Shown piece after piece: positions 7,272 through 24,765 of a DNA stretch of 64,000 bases; positions within the stretch are counted from its first letter, which is position 1; every line of letters begins with the position of its first letter. The position numbers and the translations under genes are program-made. The DNA comes from an uncultured bacterium (GTDB lineage: Bacteria > Patescibacteriota > Minisyncoccia > Phycocordibacterales > Zambryskibacteraceae), in assembly GCA_963789635.1 (NCBI GenBank), contig CAWBLF010000003.1, positions 140,364 to 204,363 on the forward strand, written 5' to 3'. The notes under the pieces were generated by a model. That model was not told the origin of the DNA and searched no databases. It was given only the letters and a program-made list of their open reading frames with translations.

Positions 7272-8945
7272 ATGTACGAAGATCTAAAATCAAAAATTTC
7301 CGGGGAACTAATGACCGATGATGCCACACTGGCCAAATACAGTCACGACGCCAGTCTGCTCGAAGTCAGGCCCAAAGCGGTAGTCCATCCCAAAGACGCA
7401 AGTGACATCAAAGCTGTAGTCAAATATGTCGCGGAACACAAGCAGTCTGACCCATCGATTTCTGTAACGGCGCGAGCGGCTGGAAGTTGTATGGCCGGGG
7501 GATCGTTAAATGAATCAATCATTCTTGATATTACTACTCATATGCAGGGAATCTTGGGTTTTGAAGGAGAATCGGCTCGTATATTGCCGGGAACTTTTTA
7601 CCGTGATTTTGAAAAAGAAACACTTGCCCGCAATCTTTTATTACCTTGCTTTACCGCTTCCAAAAATCTCAATACATTGGGAGGAATGATCGGCAACAAT
7701 AGCGCCGGTGAAAAAACATTGCGATATGGCAAAACGGAAGATTATTTGATGGAAACAAAGACGGTTTTTGCCGATGGCAATGAATACATGGTCAAACCAC
7801 TTTCAAAGGGTGAGCTTGAAGCCAAAATCACTCAAGGTGATTACGAAGGAAATATTTACAAAGGAATTTGGGAATTAATTGATAAAAACAAAGATGTGAT
7901 AATGGCAGGCAAGCCTAACGTCTCAAAAAACTCAGCAGGTTATTATATTTGGAATGTCGTAGCTTCTGACGAAGAAAGAAGCGGAGATCCTGAGCAAGGC
8001 GAAGGACGGGAAAAATTCTTTGATCTCAACAAGTTGATTGTGGGTTCTCAAGGCACACTAGGCATAGTGACCGAGGCAAAACTAGGTCTAGTGCCGGTAA
8101 AAAACGAAACAAAACTATTTGTCATATTCCTGCCATCGCTTGATAGGGTCAGCGAAGTGGTAAACAAAGTTCTCCCTCTGGATCCGGAAACCATCGAGTC
8201 ATACGACGATGCCACTATGAAGCTCGCCGTAAAGTTTTTCCCGGAAATGGTAAAGACAATGAAGGCCAGCTTTCTCAAAATGATGTGGGAATTTATTCCC
8301 GAGGCGGAGATGATTGTAACCGGAGGAATTCCAAAACTTATTTTACTAGTGGAATTTACTGAAACTTCTATGTCGGAAGTGGATAGAAAAATCGCCGATC
8401 TTTCTGAAAGAGTAAAACATTTTGGTTTCAAGACGCACATAGTGGAATCAAAAGACGAAGCTGAAAAATATTGGGCAATTCGTCGTGAAAGTTTCAATTT
8501 ATTACGAAACCACGTTCATGGTCGTCGTACTGCACCGTTTGTAGACGATGTCATAGTCAAACCGGAGTTTATGCCGGAGTTTTTGCCTAAGATGAGGGCT
8601 ATTTTGGACAGCTACAAACTGACCTATACTATTGCCGGTCATGCCGGAAATGGTAATTTCCACATTATTCCACTTATGGACATGCACGATGCCCACAATG
8701 TAGATGTCATTATGGAGGTGGGGGAGAAGGTATACGATCTAATTGCGCAGTATCACGGTTCTATCACCGCTGAGCACAACGACGGTATTGTCCGCACTCC
8801 ATACCTGCACAAAATGTATAGTCCACAAATTTTGGATATTTTTAAGCAAATCAAAAATATTTTCGATCCCGATAATATTTTTAACCCTGGCAAAAAAGTA
8901 AACGGGTCATTGGAATATTTTAAAAGTCATATAGCTAGAGAGTAG
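7272..8945 (+). CDS. FAD-binding oxidoreductase (GlcD / D-lactate dehydrogenase-like)
   Basis: 557 aa. The N-terminal FAD-binding PCMH-type pattern and the C-terminal HAGNGNFH and AEHNDG motifs are typical of FAD-linked oxidases. Confidence 0.75.
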   Translation: MYEDLKSKISGELMTDDATLAKYSHDASLLEVRPKAVVHPKDASDIKAVVKYVAEHKQSDPSISVTARAAGSCMAGGSLNESIILDITTHMQGILGFEGESARILPGTFYRDFEKETLARNLLLPCFTASKNLNTLGGMIGNNSAGEKTLRYGKTEDYLMETKTVFADGNEYMVKPLSKGELEAKITQGDYEGNIYKGIWELIDKNKDVIMAGKPNVSKNSAGYYIWNVVASDEERSGDPEQGEGREKFFDLNKLIVGSQGTLGIVTEAKLGLVPVKNETKLFVIFLPSLDRVSEVVNKVLPLDPETIESYDDATMKLAVKFFPEMVKTMKASFLKMMWEFIPEAEMIVTGGIPKLILLVEFTETSMSEVDRKIADLSERVKHFGFKTHIVESKDEAEKYWAIRRESFNLLRNHVHGRRTAPFVDDVIVKPEFMPEFLPKMRAILDSYKLTYTIAGHAGNGNFHIIPLMDMHDAHNVDVIMEVGEKVYDLIAQYHGSITAEHNDGIVRTPYLHKMYSPQILDIFKQIKNIFDPDNIFNPGKKVNGSLEYFKSHIARE

Positions 8946-9810: not shown

Positions 9811-9848
9811 TGCACAAAAAAGACGGACTATTCCGTCTTTTTTGTGCA
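9811..9848. terminator. 17-bp perfect-stem hairpin downstream of rplY
   Basis: tgcacaaaaaagacgga / ctat / tccgtcttttttgtgca. A- and T-runs are built into the stem, so it could terminate in both directions. Confidence 0.6.
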
Positions 9849-9906
9849 CGCATAATTATTGTCACTTTATATTTTGGTCAAAATGAGTTAAAATTGATAC
9901 TGACTC

Positions 9907-11310
9907 ATGAAAATTTCAGTGTATTCTAAACAGCTGTATTTGGTGCGCTCTTTTTTTGTTTTTCTTTTAATCTTGGGCATTTCTGCGCCCCATACTACCT
10001 TTGCGCAAACTACATCTTTGAGCAATGAGAGCCAGGCTCAGCTACAGGCGGATTATGATGCTCTTCAACAGGAAATTGCTAGATGGCAGGGCATTTTGGA
10101 TGAAACCAAGGCCAAAGCCAGTGGTATCAAAGGGGATATAAGCGTACTGACTGCACAAATAAATGTAGCCGAATCAACCATCAAGGCTAAAAATATTGCC
10201 ATAGCCCAACTGGCTAGCCAAATAAATATAAAAAAACAAACGTTGAGCGATTTGCAAAACAAGATTGATCAGGGGAAAGAATCTTTGGCGCAAATTATAC
10301 GCAAGACCAATGAGCTCGATGCATTTACGTTGCCTGAAGTCATACTCGGTGACCAAAACTTGTCGGACTTCTACGATGACATCAATACGTTCGATTCGGT
10401 CAATCGCTCATTGCAGATATATTTTACGGAAATACAACAAGCTCAAGCTGATACCACCAAGGCCGCTGCAGAATTGGACAGCCAAAAAAATGCCCAAACT
10501 GATGCAAAGTATATTGTGCAAACTCAAGAGAAAGCGGTAGCGCAAAGCCAGGCTGAGAAAAAACAGCTACTTGCTGTCACTCAGACTCAAGCAGCAGGTT
10601 ATCAGGCCATTGTCGCCGATAGACAAGCAAAGGCGGCGGCGATACGCGCGGCACTTTTCAAATTGCGTGACGCGCAAGGTATACAGTTTAGTGACGCTTT
10701 GGCTTACGCGAATGCTGTATCACAAAAAACCGGTGTTCGCCCGGCACTTATTCTCGCCATTTTGACTCAGGAGTCTGATCTCGGGAAAAATCAGGGGTCG
10801 TGTCTCATAACTGATCTCAATACCGGTAATGGAGTGGGTAAAAACAGTGGTACTCCATTTCAAAAAGTTATGAAAGCTCCAAACGATACAGTACCTTTTC
10901 AGGCAATTACAGCCAGATTGGGTCTCAATTGGCAATTGCAGGCTGTGTCGTGTCCACCATCATACACTTGGTATCCAACGCGAGGTTATGGCGGAGCAAT
11001 GGGACCTTCGCAATTTATTCCTTCCACTTGGGAACTTTTCAAAAACAGGATAGGAGCAATGCTCGGAATACAGCCTGACGCGGCCGACCCGTGGAACCCG
11101 GAAGATGCATTTATGGCCACAGGATTATATCTTTCAGATTTGGGAGCAGTTAACGGGAGCTATACATCAGAATACAACGCGGCTTGCAAATATTATTCGG
11201 GTTCGGTATGCAGGCCGGGACGCAAACCCCCCAATGTATTTTACGGCACGTCTGTTATGGCCGCGGCTGAAACGATTCAGAATAATATTGATTACCTAAA
11301 CGGGGTTTAG
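9907..11310 (+). CDS. secreted coiled-coil protein with a C-terminal lytic transglycosylase-like domain
   Basis: N-terminal signal/TM segment, about 230 aa Q/A-rich coiled coil, then TQESDLG and [13 protein letters not shown] motifs of MltB/SLT-like muramidases. Confidence 0.65.
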
Positions 11311-14094: not shown

Positions 14095-14481
14095 ATGTTT
14101 ACAGTTACCTTTGTTATTTCATTCGTATGCATTGTCTATCTGCTACTTGTAAAAATATACGAACTCAAAACTAACCGTGTGACGTCAATGACGAGAAGGC
14201 TCTCTGGTTATGACAAAAAAGTGATGGCGCATTGGGAAGAATTGATGAAGCACTTCACGCATCATAAAGACAGAGCCAAGACACTTGTGGATACTGGAAT
14301 ACGCACAAAATCAAAAGAACTTACTACTCTGGTCAAAGGAGCGACACGTGACGCGTATAAATTAATAATTCCCGACGTGCGAGGAAAAAGAGTTTTTAAG
14401 AGTGATAAGCAAGCTTCGGAATTTCTAAAGAACATAAGTTATCACAAAGAACAAAACGGTCACGGCAGTATAGAAGGGTAG
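14095..14481 (+). CDS. hypothetical protein with an N-terminal transmembrane helix
   Basis: 128-aa ORF in a tight operon-like position after tsf. No family recognised. Confidence 0.4.
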   Translation: MFTVTFVISFVCIVYLLLVKIYELKTNRVTSMTRRLSGYDKKVMAHWEELMKHFTHHKDRAKTLVDTGIRTKSKELTTLVKGATRDAYKLIIPDVRGKRVFKSDKQASEFLKNISYHKEQNGHGSIEG

Positions 14482-14624: not shown

Positions 14625-14700
14625 GCCGCCTTAGCTCAGTTGGTAGAGCAACACTTTTGTAAAGTGAAGGTCCTCGGTTCGAGTCCGAGAGGTGGCTCCA
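14625..14700 (+). tRNA. tRNA-Thr (anticodon UGU), CCA encoded
   Basis: Hand-folded cloverleaf. Acceptor stem GCCGCCT/AGGTGGC with one G-U pair. D arm GCTC-AGTTGGTA-GAGC. Anticodon loop ttTGTaa, anticodon at 14658-14660. T arm CTCGG-TTCGAGT-CCGAG. Discriminator T followed by CCA. Confidence 0.9.
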
Positions 14701-14735
14701 AAACAAAAAAACTCCCTGTGGAAGTTTTTTTGTTT
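14701..14735. terminator. A/T-rich hairpin immediately after the tRNA
   Basis: aaacaaaaaaact / agtttttttgttt arms around ccctgtgga. Confidence 0.4.
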
Positions 14736-14864
14736 TGCCATCTCAGCAAGACAGTCAATACTGTCTTGCGTTCGGACTCGAAAGTCGGAGACATATTTCT
14801 TCAGCAGAAGAAATAGTTGAGACGGGGTCGCGAAATTTTGCTGTGATGACAAGCAAAATATTCG

Positions 14865-21099: not shown

Positions 21100-23202
21100 A
21101 TGGCTACTCCCAAAAAAGAAGAAAAAACCCCAAAAACCAATGGTTACAGTGCTTCAGACATTACCGTTTTGGAGGGCCTTGAACCAGTAAGGAAGCGACC
21201 GGGAATGTATATTGGTACTACGGGGCCAGATGGTCTGCACCACCTCATTACAGAGGTTTTTGACAACTCTCGCGACGAAGCGATGGGTGGTTTTGCCAAT
21301 GACATCGAGGTGGCCCTTTTGCCAGGCAACCAAGTGCGAGTAGTAGACAATGGCCGAGGTATTCCTGTCGACGTACATAAGCAGACCAAAGTTTCAGCTC
21401 TTGAAACTATTATGACCACCCTCCATGCAGGAGGAAAATTTGGTGGGGAAAATAGTGGCTACAAAGTATCAGGCGGTCTTCACGGCGTGGGCGCATCTGT
21501 GGTGAACGCACTTTCTGTTTATACCAAAGCCGAAGTTTATCGAGATGGAGGTAAGTATGTGCAGGAATACAGTAAAGGAAAAAGAAAAGCTGCAGTAAAA
21601 AAGGTTGAATCATCAAAGTTGAACGGTACCATCATTACGTTTCAGCCAGACCAGGAAATTTTCCCAGACACCACTTTTGAATTTGGCCGCATAGTGAACC
21701 ACCTTCGTCAGCAGGCCTATCTTGTAAAAGGACTGCGAATTACCGCCATTGACGCGCGTGAATACAAAGGAAAAATAAATACGGATAATGTTTTCTTCCT
21801 CAAGGAACTCGGGCTAGAAGTGCCGTCCATGTCATTTTATTTTGAAGGAGGGTTGCTCTCTCTTGTGAAATTTTACAATCAAACCCAGAAGCCTATCCAT
21901 AAAAATATTTTTTATGTTGAAAAGAAAAATGAAAACTATGAATCCGTAGAAGTTTCTCTCCAGTATGTAGATGACATTGTTTCCCGTGTTGTGCCTTTTG
22001 CCAACAATATTTATAACTCTGAAGGGGGCACTCACGTCACCGGATTTAAAACGGCGCTCACACGCTCACTCAATGCCTACGCGCGCAAAAATAATCTTAT
22101 AAAAGAAAGTGAAGACAACTTTACCGGTGAAGATGTATTGGAAGGTCTGACGGCGGTCATATCGGTCAAAATCCGGGAAGTCCAGTTTGAAGGACAGACA
22201 AAAGCCAAACTTGGGACTGTGGAAGCAAGGGGATTGGTAGAAAGCGTCTTTGGTGACGCGTTTTCGGCCTTTCTAGAGGAAAATCCTGATGATGGTAGAG
22301 CTATCATAAACAAGGTGGTTTTGGCCCTAAAGGCTCGCAAAGCAGCCAAGGCGGCCAAAGACTCTGTCCTTCGCAAAGGTGCTCTTGAGGGGATGACACT
22401 CCCGGGCAAGCTTGCTGATTGCCAATCCAAGTCTGCAGAAGAATCGGAACTATTTATCGTTGAGGGAGATTCTGCCGGGGGCACTGCAAAGATGGGACGC
22501 GATCGCCGAATCCAGGCAGTGCTTCCTCTCCGCGGAAAAATACTAAACATAGAACGCGCTCGTCTCGACCGTATGCTCGGAAGCGAACAAATCAAAAATC
22601 TTGTTGTGGCACTAGGCACCGCCATAGGTGATACTTTTGATATTTCAAAATTGAGATACCACAAAATTATCATTGCCACAGATGCCGACGTTGATGGCGC
22701 TCACATCCGCACGCTCCTTCTTACATTGCTTTACAGATTTTTCCGACCGCTTATTGATTCGGGCCATATCTATATCGCCCAACCGCCACTTTATAAAATT
22801 AAAAAAGGAAAAGAAATTTTCTACGCATACTCTGATGAGGAAAAAGCAAAGATAATCGGAAAAGACGCAGGTTTGGCGGAGATTGAAGAAAGTTCCGAAT
22901 CCGTATCTGGTGAAGATGAAGAGAAGTCGCTGGGCGAAGGCGAGGAAGATGCTGAGCATAGCAGTGCGAATGTAAAGAAAGGAACTAGGATATCCATCCA
23001 GCGCTACAAAGGTCTTGGAGAAATGAATTCGGAAGAACTGTGGGAGACCACCATGGACCCGGCAAGAAGAATTTTGAAACAAGTGAATGTAGAAGATGCC
23101 CGTGAGGCGGACAAAATTTTTGACACGCTTATGGGGTCGGATGTTCCATCTCGAAAATCTTTCATCCAATCCAACGCCAAGCTTGCGAATTTGGATATAT
23201 AG
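21100..23202 (+). CDS. gyrB: DNA gyrase subunit B
   Basis: VLEGLEPVRKRPGMYIG, GGLHGVGASVVNALS, EGDSAGG, PLRGKILN and QRYKGLGEM motifs. I chose the ATG at 21100. Confidence 0.95.
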   Translation: MATPKKEEKTPKTNGYSASDITVLEGLEPVRKRPGMYIGTTGPDGLHHLITEVFDNSRDEAMGGFANDIEVALLPGNQVRVVDNGRGIPVDVHKQTKVSALETIMTTLHAGGKFGGENSGYKVSGGLHGVGASVVNALSVYTKAEVYRDGGKYVQEYSKGKRKAAVKKVESSKLNGTIITFQPDQEIFPDTTFEFGRIVNHLRQQAYLVKGLRITAIDAREYKGKINTDNVFFLKELGLEVPSMSFYFEGGLLSLVKFYNQTQKPIHKNIFYVEKKNENYESVEVSLQYVDDIVSRVVPFANNIYNSEGGTHVTGFKTALTRSLNAYARKNNLIKESEDNFTGEDVLEGLTAVISVKIREVQFEGQTKAKLGTVEARGLVESVFGDAFSAFLEENPDDGRAIINKVVLALKARKAAKAAKDSVLRKGALEGMTLPGKLADCQSKSAEESELFIVEGDSAGGTAKMGRDRRIQAVLPLRGKILNIERARLDRMLGSEQIKNLVVALGTAIGDTFDISKLRYHKIIIATDADVDGAHIRTLLLTLLYRFFRPLIDSGHIYIAQPPLYKIKKGKEIFYAYSDEEKAKIIGKDAGLAEIEESSESVSGEDEEKSLGEGEEDAEHSSANVKKGTRISIQRYKGLGEMNSEELWETTMDPARRILKQVNVEDAREADKIFDTLMGSDVPSRKSFIQSNAKLANLDI

Positions 23203-23213
23203 TTAAAACAAAA

Positions 23214-23241
23214 ATCTGCCGAACTAATAAGCTCGGCAGAT
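23214..23241 (-). terminator. rho-independent terminator oriented for a minus-strand transcript (may also stop gyrB)
   Basis: atctgccgaac/gctcggcagat stem. The T-run (tttttgtttt) follows the stem only on the minus strand. Confidence 0.6.
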
Positions 23242-23249
23242 GTGGTTCA

Positions 23250-23497
23250 ACCGTCAATCCCGACCCACTTAAGGTCGCGGAAAAGATCCGGTTTCAGGTC
23301 GAAGAACGTTTTTCCTTGGGTGGCTTTTATGCAACAACTTTCACACTCGTCCAATCTTGAGGAGTGCAAGGGTAAGGAGATGTTACCCCTCAATGAGAAT
23401 TGTTTCCAAAGAGAAAATCTTTTTCTTTTTTCTTGGCCCTACAATGAACATGTCGTTTTACCTGAGGCGATAAAACAGTTCATGGTTGGGATGACCT
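23250..23497 (-). ncRNA. candidate structured non-coding RNA of unknown class
   Basis: About 250 nt with no credible ORF. Ends pair: 23484-23495 with 23253-23265. Internal hairpins at 23444-23483 and 23368-23390. Followed by a terminator oriented for the minus strand. Confidence 0.3.
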
Positions 23498-23560
23498 TTC
23501 AGTAAAAATTTTTCAAATATTAGTATTCTCAAATAAAAATTAAAAAAATATAAATTAAAA

Positions 23561-23604
23561 ATGTATTACTTCCACTACAGTATACTGTAGTGGAAGTAAT
23601 ACAT
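23561..23604. promoter_or_regulatory. 44-bp perfect palindrome (atgtattacttccactacagta|tactgtagtggaagtaatacat); candidate operator and/or terminator
   Basis: Perfect dyad verified base by base. Shares the 20-bp core cactacagtatactgtagtg with 24049-24090. Lies 32 nt downstream of the HTH gene stop. Confidence 0.6.
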
Positions 23605-23636
23605 CATGTAAGTAGGTAAACTTTAAATTTATTAAA

Positions 23637-24032
23637 TTAGAAAATTTTTAGATTTTTGTGAGGTCTTCTAACTCGCGGAGGAAGTATTCCATACAGCAAT
23701 CTTTCAATTTCGTCAGCCAACTTGCCTTTTTTGGAGATTATTGAAATGGTTTCTTTGTATTTTCCAGCATCCATTGCAAGTGAGAATTTTGCGATAGTGG
23801 TTGGGCTAAGATGAATAATTTCAGAGATATTTTCGAAGGATATGTTCTTTTCCAGCATATAAATCATTGTGATTCTCTTTGCAAACATGATTTTTTCTGT
23901 TTTCGTGAATAACTCTTTCATTACCGAAAGGGAACGTGAACGGTCATCTGCCTCTTGAAATGTCTTGGCAAATTGAGTCATTATTTTGTTGAAAACTTGC
24001 TGGTCTATTTTCTTTTGAGATATATGTGGCAT
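23637..24032 (-). CDS. TrpR-like (YerC/YecD family) helix-turn-helix protein
   Basis: 131 aa. The pattern L.T..E..M.AKR......L.......I......S..TI is typical of Trp-repressor-related YerC/YecD proteins. Confidence 0.6.
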   Translation of the reverse strand: MPHISQKKIDQQVFNKIMTQFAKTFQEADDRSRSLSVMKELFTKTEKIMFAKRITMIYMLEKNISFENISEIIHLSPTTIAKFSLAMDAGKYKETISIISKKGKLADEIERLLYGILPPRVRRPHKNLKIF

Positions 24033-24048
24033 GTTTTTGTTACGAGTG

Positions 24049-24090
24049 ACTATATATTACACTACAGTATACTGTAGTGTAATATATAGT
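24049..24090. promoter_or_regulatory. 42-bp perfect palindrome (actatatattacactacagta|tactgtagtgtaatatatagt); candidate operator of the HTH gene
   Basis: Perfect dyad verified base by base. Lies 16 nt upstream of the HTH start codon. Same 20-bp core as 23561-23604. Confidence 0.6.
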
Positions 24091-24129
24091 GTCAAAGCTA
24101 AATACTGCTGGAATTTTTGCAAAAGTTAT

Positions 24130-24765
24130 TTAAAACTCTTTGGTTTCGCCATCGGCAATGGTGACGAAATTGATGCCGACTTTGTCCAAAATCATGGCTA
24201 CCATTCCGGCAAATCGGACAGGGTCTTTGTACATAGCGTCGTGGACGCCAAAGGCAATTTTAGGATTGATAGTTCTGGCGTATTCTATTGCATCGGAAAT
24301 TTTCATCCAAGGTCCTGCGACTGGAAGAGCCAGAATATCTACCGGAATTCCTGGGTCGTAGAAAGCATCACCTGGGTAAAATAGTTTTTCACCTATCATA
24401 TAGCCTGTATTTTCCACGGGAGGAATGGTTATGTAAATTTCCGCGTGAGTGTCTCCGTAGCCTTGTATCAGTATTCCACCGACATCCGTTTCATCTTTGT
24501 GAGCCACAATTTCAAATGGAATGCTCTCCTTTGCCAAGAGTGTGGATACAGCAGTATTTGTGATAACACGGGCAGACGGATTGTTCGCCAGTACTTTTTT
24601 TAAGGAATCTATATGAAAATGGTCGGCATGCTCGTGAGTAATAAGCACCGCCGAAATGCCAGTGACCTCGTTTTGCCCCGTAGTAAAGTTTCCCGGGTCT
24701 GTGAGCAGTTTCACTCCTTTGTCTTCAATGACCAGACAACAATGTCCAATTTTAGTTATGCGCAT
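24130..24765 (-). CDS. MBL-fold metallo-hydrolase
   Basis: 211 aa with the HEHADH motif (LITHEHADHF) and downstream H/D ligands. Its ATG overlaps the thrS stop (TAATG). Confidence 0.8.
   Translation of the reverse strand: MRITKIGHCCLVIEDKGVKLLTDPGNFTTGQNEVTGISAVLITHEHADHFHIDSLKKVLANNPSARVITNTAVSTLLAKESIPFEIVAHKDETDVGGILIQGYGDTHAEIYITIPPVENTGYMIGEKLFYPGDAFYDPGIPVDILALPVAGPWMKISDAIEYARTINPKIAFGVHDAMYKDPVRFAGMVAMILDKVGINFVTIADGETKEF

Follow-up and report, generated by a model that had tools for sequence, protein, structure and literature searches.

A TrpR-like regulator gene of the Parcubacteria bracketed by two copies of its predicted operator

The locus described here lies in a 64-kb window, a term by which we denote the whole stretch of DNA that was analysed, and consists of a gene for a 131-residue protein with a helix-turn-helix (HTH) motif and of two perfect palindromes that bracket it (Table 1). 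Its neighbours in the window are thrS, an MBL-fold gene and gyrB. Since the HTH gene is encoded on the minus strand, its upstream side is occupied by the 42-bp dyad, 16 nt 5' of the ATG and between the HTH gene and the MBL-fold gene, and its downstream side by the 44-bp dyad, 32 nt 3' of the stop codon. The arms are 21 nt long upstream (24049–24069 and 24070–24090) and 22 nt long downstream (23561–23582 and 23583–23604); in both cases complementarity is 100% and the spacer is 0 nt. A 20-bp core, CACTACAGTATACTGTAGTG, is common to the two palindromes, and the outer arms differ in sequence between them, each being perfectly symmetric. When up to 3 mismatches were allowed, CACTACAGTATACTGTAGTG was found in the 64-kb window at 23573–23592 and 24060–24079 only, and it had 0 occurrences in 100 shuffles of the sequence. 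Given the composition of the window (42% G+C), 2e-8 perfect palindromes with 21-nt arms and no spacer are expected, and the longest arm among the other perfect palindromes in the 64 kb measures 8 nt. A chance origin of both palindromes is excluded. The first-pass annotation had reported two perfect dyads of 42–44 bp without a spacer, a shared 20-bp core with differing outer arms, the distances of 16 and 32 nt and the rarity of dyads of this length; all of this was recovered, the dyads at exactly the same coordinates.

Table 1. Features at the bracketed locus (positions refer to the window; the slash marks the dyad axis).
Feature	Position	Strand	Remarks
Gene for 131-aa TrpR-family HTH protein	23637..24032	minus	assigned by profile and fold
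MBL-fold gene	24130..24765	minus	
Upstream operator (putative), 42-bp perfect palindrome	24049..24090		core 24060-24079, centre 24069/24070
Downstream operator (putative), 44-bp perfect palindrome	23561..23604		core 23573-23592, centre 23582/23583
-35-like hexamer TTGACA	24090..24095	minus	abuts/overlaps outer end of upstream palindrome
-10-like hexamer TATACT	24066..24071	minus	centre of upstream palindrome
T-rich tail TTTTAATTTA	23551..23560	minus	directly 3' of downstream hairpin
Adjacent non-coding structured stretch	23205..23550	minus	outside conserved module; terminator-like hairpin 23214-23241 and T-tract at its end

Both palindromes fold as long RNA hairpins (−25 and −30 kcal/mol), the downstream one giving, on the minus strand, a hairpin of 20 pairs at −30 kcal/mol. 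The non-coding stretch of about 340 nt that adjoins it is structured (MFE z = −3.26); it matched no Rfam family and had no counterpart in 96 related loci (L001–L096). A GC-rich stretch of about 300 nt upstream of the gene in locus L001 was considered as a further RNA association and rejected, as it is unlike both the stretch in the window and the other loci; it matched nothing in Rfam either.

Taken by itself, the window protein gave a weak match to PF01371 (Trp_repressor) of 22.6 bits, short of the gathering score (27), and had no match in NCBIfam. The AlphaFold (AF2) monomer model is all-alpha with seven helices (pLDDT 86.8), and when it was compared with the PDB using Foldseek, the top 25 matches were all TrpR or HisR chains, with TM scores (target) of 0.62–0.78. 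A profile built from five sequences was then searched against a library clustered at 50% identity, which returned 1852 clusters at E ≤ 1e-3, of which 844 reached E ≤ 1e-10; among the best 150 of the 1852, almost every one is 113–160 aa long. PF01371 was matched by 78 of 81 family members (E ≤ 0.01; best E 4.7e-12), and with the family profile E-values were about 2e-6 for the solved TrpR-like/HisR structures 3g1c, 3kor and 3frw, and 0.02 for E. coli TrpR. With these Pfam matches and structure matches, homology is secure at the level of the family. The relatives are named 'Trp family transcriptional regulator' or 'YerC' in the databases, where their lineages fall in the Parcubacteria group (Paceibacterota, Nomurabacteria, Zambryskibacteria, Minisyncoccia). 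Judged by sequence and modelled fold, the window protein is thus best assigned as a divergent member of the Trp repressor family, within a large CPR/Parcubacteria branch. Pfam, family profile and fold matches hence agree with the earlier description of a TrpR-like HTH gene.

The alignment also places the residues that matter for function. Two invariant residues of the family, T43 and R53, align with T44 and R54 of E. coli TrpR, which we take to be residues of the co-repressor pocket. Their conservation at these positions suggests a small-molecule ligand, and a small-molecule co-repressor is plausible for this TrpR-like family. The recognition helix of the window protein (S76-P77-T78-T79-I80-A81-K82) aligns onto G78-I79-A80-T81-I82-T83-R84 of TrpR, so that residue 78 (Thr, Ser or Ala) corresponds to A80, the invariant T79 to T81 and K/R82 to R84. 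In TrpR, A80, T81 and R84 are DNA-contacting residues (PMC9413887). The window protein departs from TrpR and HisR in being about 30 aa longer, with two extra C-terminal helices predicted at 93–116 in the AF2 model. The invariant start of the family, MPH(I/V)S, and its basic C-terminal tail of the PPRxGRGRW type, degenerate in the window protein, likewise set it apart.

For comparison of the surrounding DNA, 6 genome loci, 80 metagenome loci, the loci fetched earlier and the window were combined, giving 80 distinct proteins. Dyads adjoined the gene in all four close homologues found first (4/4), their core varying by locus; examples of the core are CACTCCAGTATACTGGAGTG in L001, TCACTTGCATATATGCAAGTGA in L007, TTAATACAGTATACTGTATTAA in L008 and CACTACATTATAATGTAGTG in L010. 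In loci with both flanks available (n=75), the 160 nt before the ATG were compared with the 170 nt after the stop codon. Agreement at 15 or more of 16 nt between the two was seen in 69/75 loci; shuffled flanks gave 0/75, and flanks taken from another locus 9/75. A dyad centred on TA/TA was called on both sides of the gene in at least 67 of 77 loci, with median distances of 30 bp from the upstream dyad centre to the ATG and of 32 bp from the stop codon to the downstream centre; several of the ten uncalled loci are visibly paired and were missed by the automatic centring. The pair is present irrespective of the adjoining genes: with a divergent upstream gene in 15/16 loci and a co-directional one in 41/50, with a convergent downstream gene in 35/42 that had both flanks and a co-directional one in 18/20. 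The downstream neighbour is convergent in 43/63 loci.

The family consensus of the dyad is roughly AATyTaCTAC-NN-TA/TA-NN-GTAGtArATT, and a second flavour, CCTTAAC-TATCATA/TATGATA-CTAAGG, also occurs. Across the family the perfect arm has a median of 6 nt and a maximum of 24 nt, which puts the 42- and 44-bp palindromes of the window at the long end. In a subfamily of 141-aa proteins the half-sites show a conserved asymmetry, by which pairing is broken identically in both copies. Asymmetric sites occur in direct as well as in inverted orientation. Gene neighbourhoods vary between clades and are stable within them: the order thrS to HTH gene, convergent with gyrB-pheT-pheS, is found in the window, L018, L019, L027, L083, L100 and L101, and the gap between the HTH gene and gyrB in the relatives with this synteny is only 63–90 nt. 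The site-gene-site bracket is a family trait, kept whatever the neighbouring genes are, and gene and sites are passed on together as one module across a large Parcubacteria/CPR family. The comparison with relatives proposed in the first-pass annotation did not refute its operator model: gene and dyads co-occur, and the dyads stand next to the related HTH genes.

Two features of the neighbourhood had raised the idea of an association with a replication origin (dnaN/dnaA), namely that the proteins of the upstream neighbours clustered at about 370 and 465 aa and that a DnaA-box-like TTATCCACA lies beside some of the sites. All-against-all BLAST of these neighbours identified ThrRS, RseP-like, GAPDH, transketolase, Fpg and SMC, i.e. 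other genes, and the idea was rejected.

Residues of the protein were next set against bases of the dyad, by scoring all pairs of protein column and DNA position, the half-site position being counted outward from the dyad centre. Residue 78 and half-site position 4 stood out by far, with a z-score of 23.5, the maximum over all pairs. Residue 78, second in the recognition helix, corresponds to Ala80 of TrpR, and the loci divide into Thr with A (27), Ser with G (24) and Ala with C (7), so that the pairing rule is satisfied in 58/65 loci; by individual half-site it holds in 107/120 cases for Thr, 96/108 for Ser and 26/32 for Ala. Fitch parsimony on a neighbour-joining tree required at least 15 changes in residue 78 and at least 14 in base 4, and residue and base switch inside several clades whose members are 70–80% identical. 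With some 15 independent switches, some of them within clades, the co-variation does not go back to a single coincidence that was inherited. The window obeys this rule, with T78 and an A at position 4 of the half-site CACTACAGTA, and its closest clade is an exception zone, with Val in L018 and Ala in L019. The dyad centre is invariably TA/TA. The co-variation of residue 78 with base 4 indicates that the dyads are the protein's own operators, and it is the strongest computational support for regarding both dyads of the window as predicted operators of the encoded TrpR-like protein. It also locates the predicted contact at the residue that corresponds to Ala80 in TrpR. A weaker co-variation links residues 127–129 of the C-terminal tail with the outer positions 9–11; a contact between the tail and these outer half-site positions is only a lead.

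Promoter-like and terminator-like signals were found in the window. The best promoter-like site in 23100–24300 is a sigma70-like TTGACA-18-TATACT, which matches at 11 of 12 positions, and its −10 coincides with the centre of the upstream dyad; autorepression is implied by this overlap. In this respect the autoregulated repressor put forward in the first-pass annotation gains support, by an inferred step. On the strand of the gene the downstream dyad scores as a terminator, 20 pairs being followed by TTTTAATTTA. With this T-rich tail immediately after the hairpin, the downstream copy is terminator-like, and the upstream dyad does not have the format of hairpin plus T-tract. The earlier wording that the second dyad might 'terminate into' the adjoining stretch is thus a fair one for this window.

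These signals do not extend over the family. When a −35 at 16–18 bp from the dyad centre was looked for family-wide, the upstream sites scored no better than downstream and reversed controls. A family-wide overlap with the promoter was therefore rejected, and the overlap holds for this window and perhaps for its clade only. Similarly, a run of at least 4 T near the downstream copy is present in only 17/65 family loci; as most downstream copies have no T-tract and enrichment is insufficient, a general terminator function of the downstream dyads was rejected also.

Further targets were sought around the gene. With up to 4 mismatches in 16 allowed, the 64-kb window contained no additional operator site, and within ±10 kb in L098–L101 the bracket was all that appeared. 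In 189 kb of ±1.5-kb flanks there was one site only at more than 250 bp from the gene, and extra clusters of sites were seen in L097 only among the loci examined. Neither trp genes nor other targets turned up near the gene, and none of the loci examined showed his genes. A small dispersed regulon may exist elsewhere in the genomes.

If the dyads had nothing to do with the protein, they could be plain structural hairpins that serve the flanking genes by intrinsic termination or by stabilising RNA. Their long folds, the T-tract of the downstream one and the outer arms, which keep symmetry but not sequence between the copies as expected of selection on structure, would fit this. The same cannot be said of the core, which is common to both copies, is conserved across loci whose proteins are 30–60% identical, co-varies with a residue of the recognition helix and has an invariable TA/TA where the loop of the hairpin would be. 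Moreover, the upstream copy is present in 15 of the 16 loci with a divergent gene, where there is nothing to terminate, most copies are without a T-tract, and the half-site asymmetry of the 141-aa subfamily breaks pairing alike in both copies. We therefore regard plain hairpins as very improbable. Still more remote is the notion of a small mobile cassette, with the HTH gene as its cargo and the dyads as its ends, in the role of terminal repeats or recombination sites. A small gene between matching repeats does resemble a minimal insertion sequence, and gene neighbourhoods vary between clades, but the protein, an all-alpha TrpR fold, contains no catalytic domain, no locus seen has more than one copy of the gene, synteny is kept inside clades (the thrS-HTH order convergent with gyrB-pheTS recurring in the window, L100 and L101), the outer edges show no target-site duplication, and asymmetric sites are found in direct and inverted orientation. 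No relatives of the family were found on IMG/VR contigs, which speaks against the cassette as well, and a phage origin was rejected on this ground.

More closely argued is the role of the downstream copy. The first-pass annotation had assigned it to the control of the RNA locus behind it, as an operator or gate: the stretch at 23205–23550 is co-directional, begins right after the dyad, is structured and ends in a terminator of its own, and a bound repressor or a hairpin would control read-through into it. This did not hold up against the relatives, nearly all of which have the second dyad whatever lies beyond. The predominance of convergent downstream neighbours (43/63), the 63–90 nt to which the space is reduced in the thrS-HTH-gyrB relatives, the restriction of the stretch to the window, with neither a homologue in the related loci nor an Rfam match, and the failure to find a promoter-like site between dyad and stretch all make an RNA gate improbable. 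A DNA loop is the better placed alternative, although we consider it unlikely too. In such a loop the repressor dimer on one dyad would touch the dimer on the other, the extra C-terminal helices perhaps forming the contact, and the two would enclose the whole gene in about 0.45–0.56 kb of DNA for tighter autorepression, the hairpin and terminator properties being secondary. The downstream copy is indeed conserved regardless of what lies beyond it, the two copies within a locus stay near-identical, and the extra length of the protein with its predicted helices could provide a contact surface. The closest relative, L097 (59% identity), adds to this. Three operators, 54–55 bp apart, precede its gene, three more copies precede the upstream unit, and downstream there is one copy only, at a distance of 3.9 kb, past two further co-directional genes (one for an LCAT/DUF7379 protein, the other for a small membrane protein) and hence at the far end of a three-gene unit, as contact between promoter and end predicts. 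This layout also counts for a role at the unit boundary. Against the loop stands the spacing: centre-to-centre distances range over 431–559 bp without helical phasing across the family, which gives no support to a phase-dependent loop, though phasing is weak evidence at this length. Tetramerisation of the repressor would be a supposition, and TrpR-family proteins are not known to loop DNA. The second operator may be kept as a unit boundary, a roadblock or a loop.

In the window and in about seven other loci the perfect palindrome runs on well past the sequence common to both copies, and each copy has an extension of its own. Symmetry that is kept without sequence points to selection on a hairpin or cruciform, or to 'perfecting' by template switching, rather than to protein contacts. 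Template-switch perfecting of quasi-palindromes is a possible source of such symmetry. The binding of one protein alone does not explain outer arms that differ and are each perfectly symmetric.

From these comparisons we infer binding, repression, any co-repressor and the role of the downstream copy alike, and arrive at a likely reading: a TrpR-family repressor autoregulated through the upstream dyad, with a second operator at the 3' boundary of its transcription unit, the whole forming a co-drifting module. The 131-aa protein would be a dimeric TrpR-family repressor and both palindromes its cognate operators. A dimer bound to the upstream palindrome would cover the −10 of the gene's own promoter, resulting in negative autoregulation. 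The downstream dyad would be the second operator copy, at the 3' boundary of the unit; in the transcript of this window its 20-pair hairpin and T-tract would act as a terminator, and repressor bound there could also serve as a roadblock, touch the upstream site, or do both. Each dyad would accordingly be put to dual use, with the core of 16–20 bp as operator and, in this window, the downstream copy also ending the transcript. Residue 78 would read base pair 4 of each half-site, and recognition helix and operator would drift together.

Known systems offer parallels for parts of this arrangement. The protein probably works like an autoregulated repressor of the TrpR/HisR type. The operator of E. 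coli trpR overlaps its own promoter, and the gene is negatively autoregulated; the upstream operator of the window likewise overlaps the promoter of its gene. TrpR shares with the window protein the Pfam family and the fold, the alignment of its contact and pocket positions (see above) and a palindromic operator of about 20 bp. Differences lie in the operator sequence (CACTACAGTA/TACTGTAGTG in the window vs TGTAcTnGTnnACnAgTACA for TrpR), the second operator past the stop codon and the host lineage, CPR. The trp-operator-like format that the first-pass annotation had seen in the dyads is in keeping with the 20-bp palindromes of TrpR-family operators (PMC9413887). By profile, the nearest structures that have been solved (3g1c, 3kor, 3frw) are those of the HisR (YerC/YecD) branch. 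HisR motifs are 20-bp palindromic and lineage-specific, and an upstream site of the regulator's own gene occurs in about half of the genomes (PMC9413887). The window gene is not a HisR orthologue, as both motif and gene context differ: HisR has the motif cacTTTAnnnnnnTAAAgtg and a regulon of his genes and transporters, whereas the core here is CACTACAGTATACTGTAGTG, the motif is CTAC-NN-TATA-NN-GTAG-like, the neighbours are thrS, the MBL-fold gene and gyrB, and his genes were seen in none of the loci examined. A downstream copy has not been reported for hisR.

A second operator for the same repressor, downstream or on the far side, is familiar from lac O1/O2, gal OE/OI and the OL-OR pair of lambda CI, which flanks cI-rex. 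The lac, gal and lambda repressors have known tetramerisation or octamerisation surfaces, whereas looping in the present family is conjecture and the spacing is without phasing; unlike in those systems, the pair here encloses the repressor gene itself, and does so as a family-wide rule. Inverted-repeat operators inside or at the end of transcription units are known from HrcA-CIRCE and from the 'stoperators' of mycobacteriophage L5. The likeness, a protein site on DNA with a possible hairpin or roadblock, is a lead only. The proteins come from unrelated families, the CIRCE repeat is interrupted by a 9-nt spacer, and the stoperators are 13-mers without symmetry.

Our literature searches found no work linking the Trp repressor with regulation in CPR or Patescibacteria, full-text searches found none describing an operator before the ATG and another after the stop codon for TrpR or HisR, and work on flanking operators with looping concerned the classical systems only. 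New here are the family-wide operator-gene-operator layout, the rule connecting residue 78 with base 4 and the CPR lineage. CPR/Patescibacteria are not growable alone and encode few regulators, and to our knowledge almost nothing is known of their transcription control. For a large family, with 844 clusters below E = 1e-10 in the 50%-identity library, there is now a predicted pair of protein and operator in every genome, together with a simple rule of one residue and one base pair, by which Thr, Ser or Ala at 78 goes with A, G or C at position 4. A bolder and doubtful, if possible, extension is that the TrpR-like protein marks both ends of its unit, as a loop of about 0.5 kb or as a protein-dependent boundary or terminator, in a self-bracketing CPR architecture with a residue-78 code and mostly only two high-affinity sites. 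The boundary reading is set in genomes with intergenic gaps of 60–100 nt, and if the downstream copy is a loop anchor or a protein-dependent boundary, it would represent a new kind of gene insulation in very compact genomes.

Among the relatives, the HTH gene directly follows thrS and runs towards gyrB in convergent orientation. In the window, the positions directly outside the two palindromes that bracket the HTH gene are taken by an MBL-fold hydrolase gene and by a non-coding stretch (coordinates are listed in the table below), as if two insertions had taken place, both at palindrome edges.

The non-coding stretch has a hairpin with a T-tract at its end and, with z = −3.26, folds better than its shuffled versions. 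By eye, its G+C is apparently above that of its surroundings. An Rfam search with it gave no match, and no counterpart was found in 96 related loci. Because no promoter-like site was found ahead of it, the HTH transcript may extend into the stretch at its 3' end by read-through. Elsewhere in the window, an 18-nt inverted repeat lies immediately after a tRNA gene and probably serves as its terminator.

Coordinates of the window features discussed here
Feature	Position	Strand	Remark
MBL-fold hydrolase gene	24130-24765	minus	
Non-coding stretch, ~340 nt	23205-23550	minus	between downstream dyad and gyrB
Hairpin and T-tract	23214-23241		
tRNA gene	14625-14697		66 bits
Inverted repeat	14699-14737		

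Predicted targets beyond the regulator gene were found only in L097, the locus of the closest relative, among the loci seen. This locus, which lies on the same contig as the related loci L001 and L017, carries seven predicted cognate operators within 20 kb (7792-7980, 9846-9970 and 14270-14285). Three precede a 366-aa gene, spaced 91 and 82 bp. A further three, spaced 54–55 bp, are found ahead of the HTH gene, and the last lies beyond a 3-gene unit composed of the HTH gene, LCAT/DUF7379 (1085 aa) and a 128-aa membrane protein. Just upstream of the three predicted operators ahead of the HTH gene lies a GC-rich stretch of ~300 nt (L001 3490-3800, equivalent to L097 9490-9800). It is preceded by a promoter-like site, TTGACA...TAGTAT, and followed by a hairpin terminator. 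No Rfam family scored above threshold for this stretch, the best being c-di-GMP-II (23 bits; cut-off 53.5), and comparison with the non-coding stretch of the window revealed no similarity.

Other relatives show unusual dyads or flanks. In L060, composite nested dyads (CTACAGTATATTATAGTATAATATACTGTAG) flank the gene on both sides, around 900-930 and 1440-1470, each resembling a pair of overlapping operators. In this protein, residue 78, the second of the recognition helix, is Met. In the 141-aa subfamily (L032, L042 and L096), a DnaA-box-like TTATCCACA, or a sequence close to it, sits right at the edge of the upstream operator, about 20–30 nt upstream of the dyad centre; this element may be no more than the subfamily's −35 region. 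A ~680-nt gap, which by eye apparently contains tRNA genes, separates rbfA from the HTH gene in L102 (9320-9900), where the upstream operator is found 89 bp before the ATG, compared with a family median of 30.

The first residues of the HTH family, Met-Pro-His-(Ile/Val)-Ser, show no or almost no variation (alignment A2/A3), which is unusual for an N-terminus. The predicted family operator is A/T-rich at its centre (TA/TA, the slash marking the dyad axis) and in its outer flanks (AATTT), and the C-terminal PPRxGRGRW tail of the family resembles an AT-hook-like minor-groove arm.
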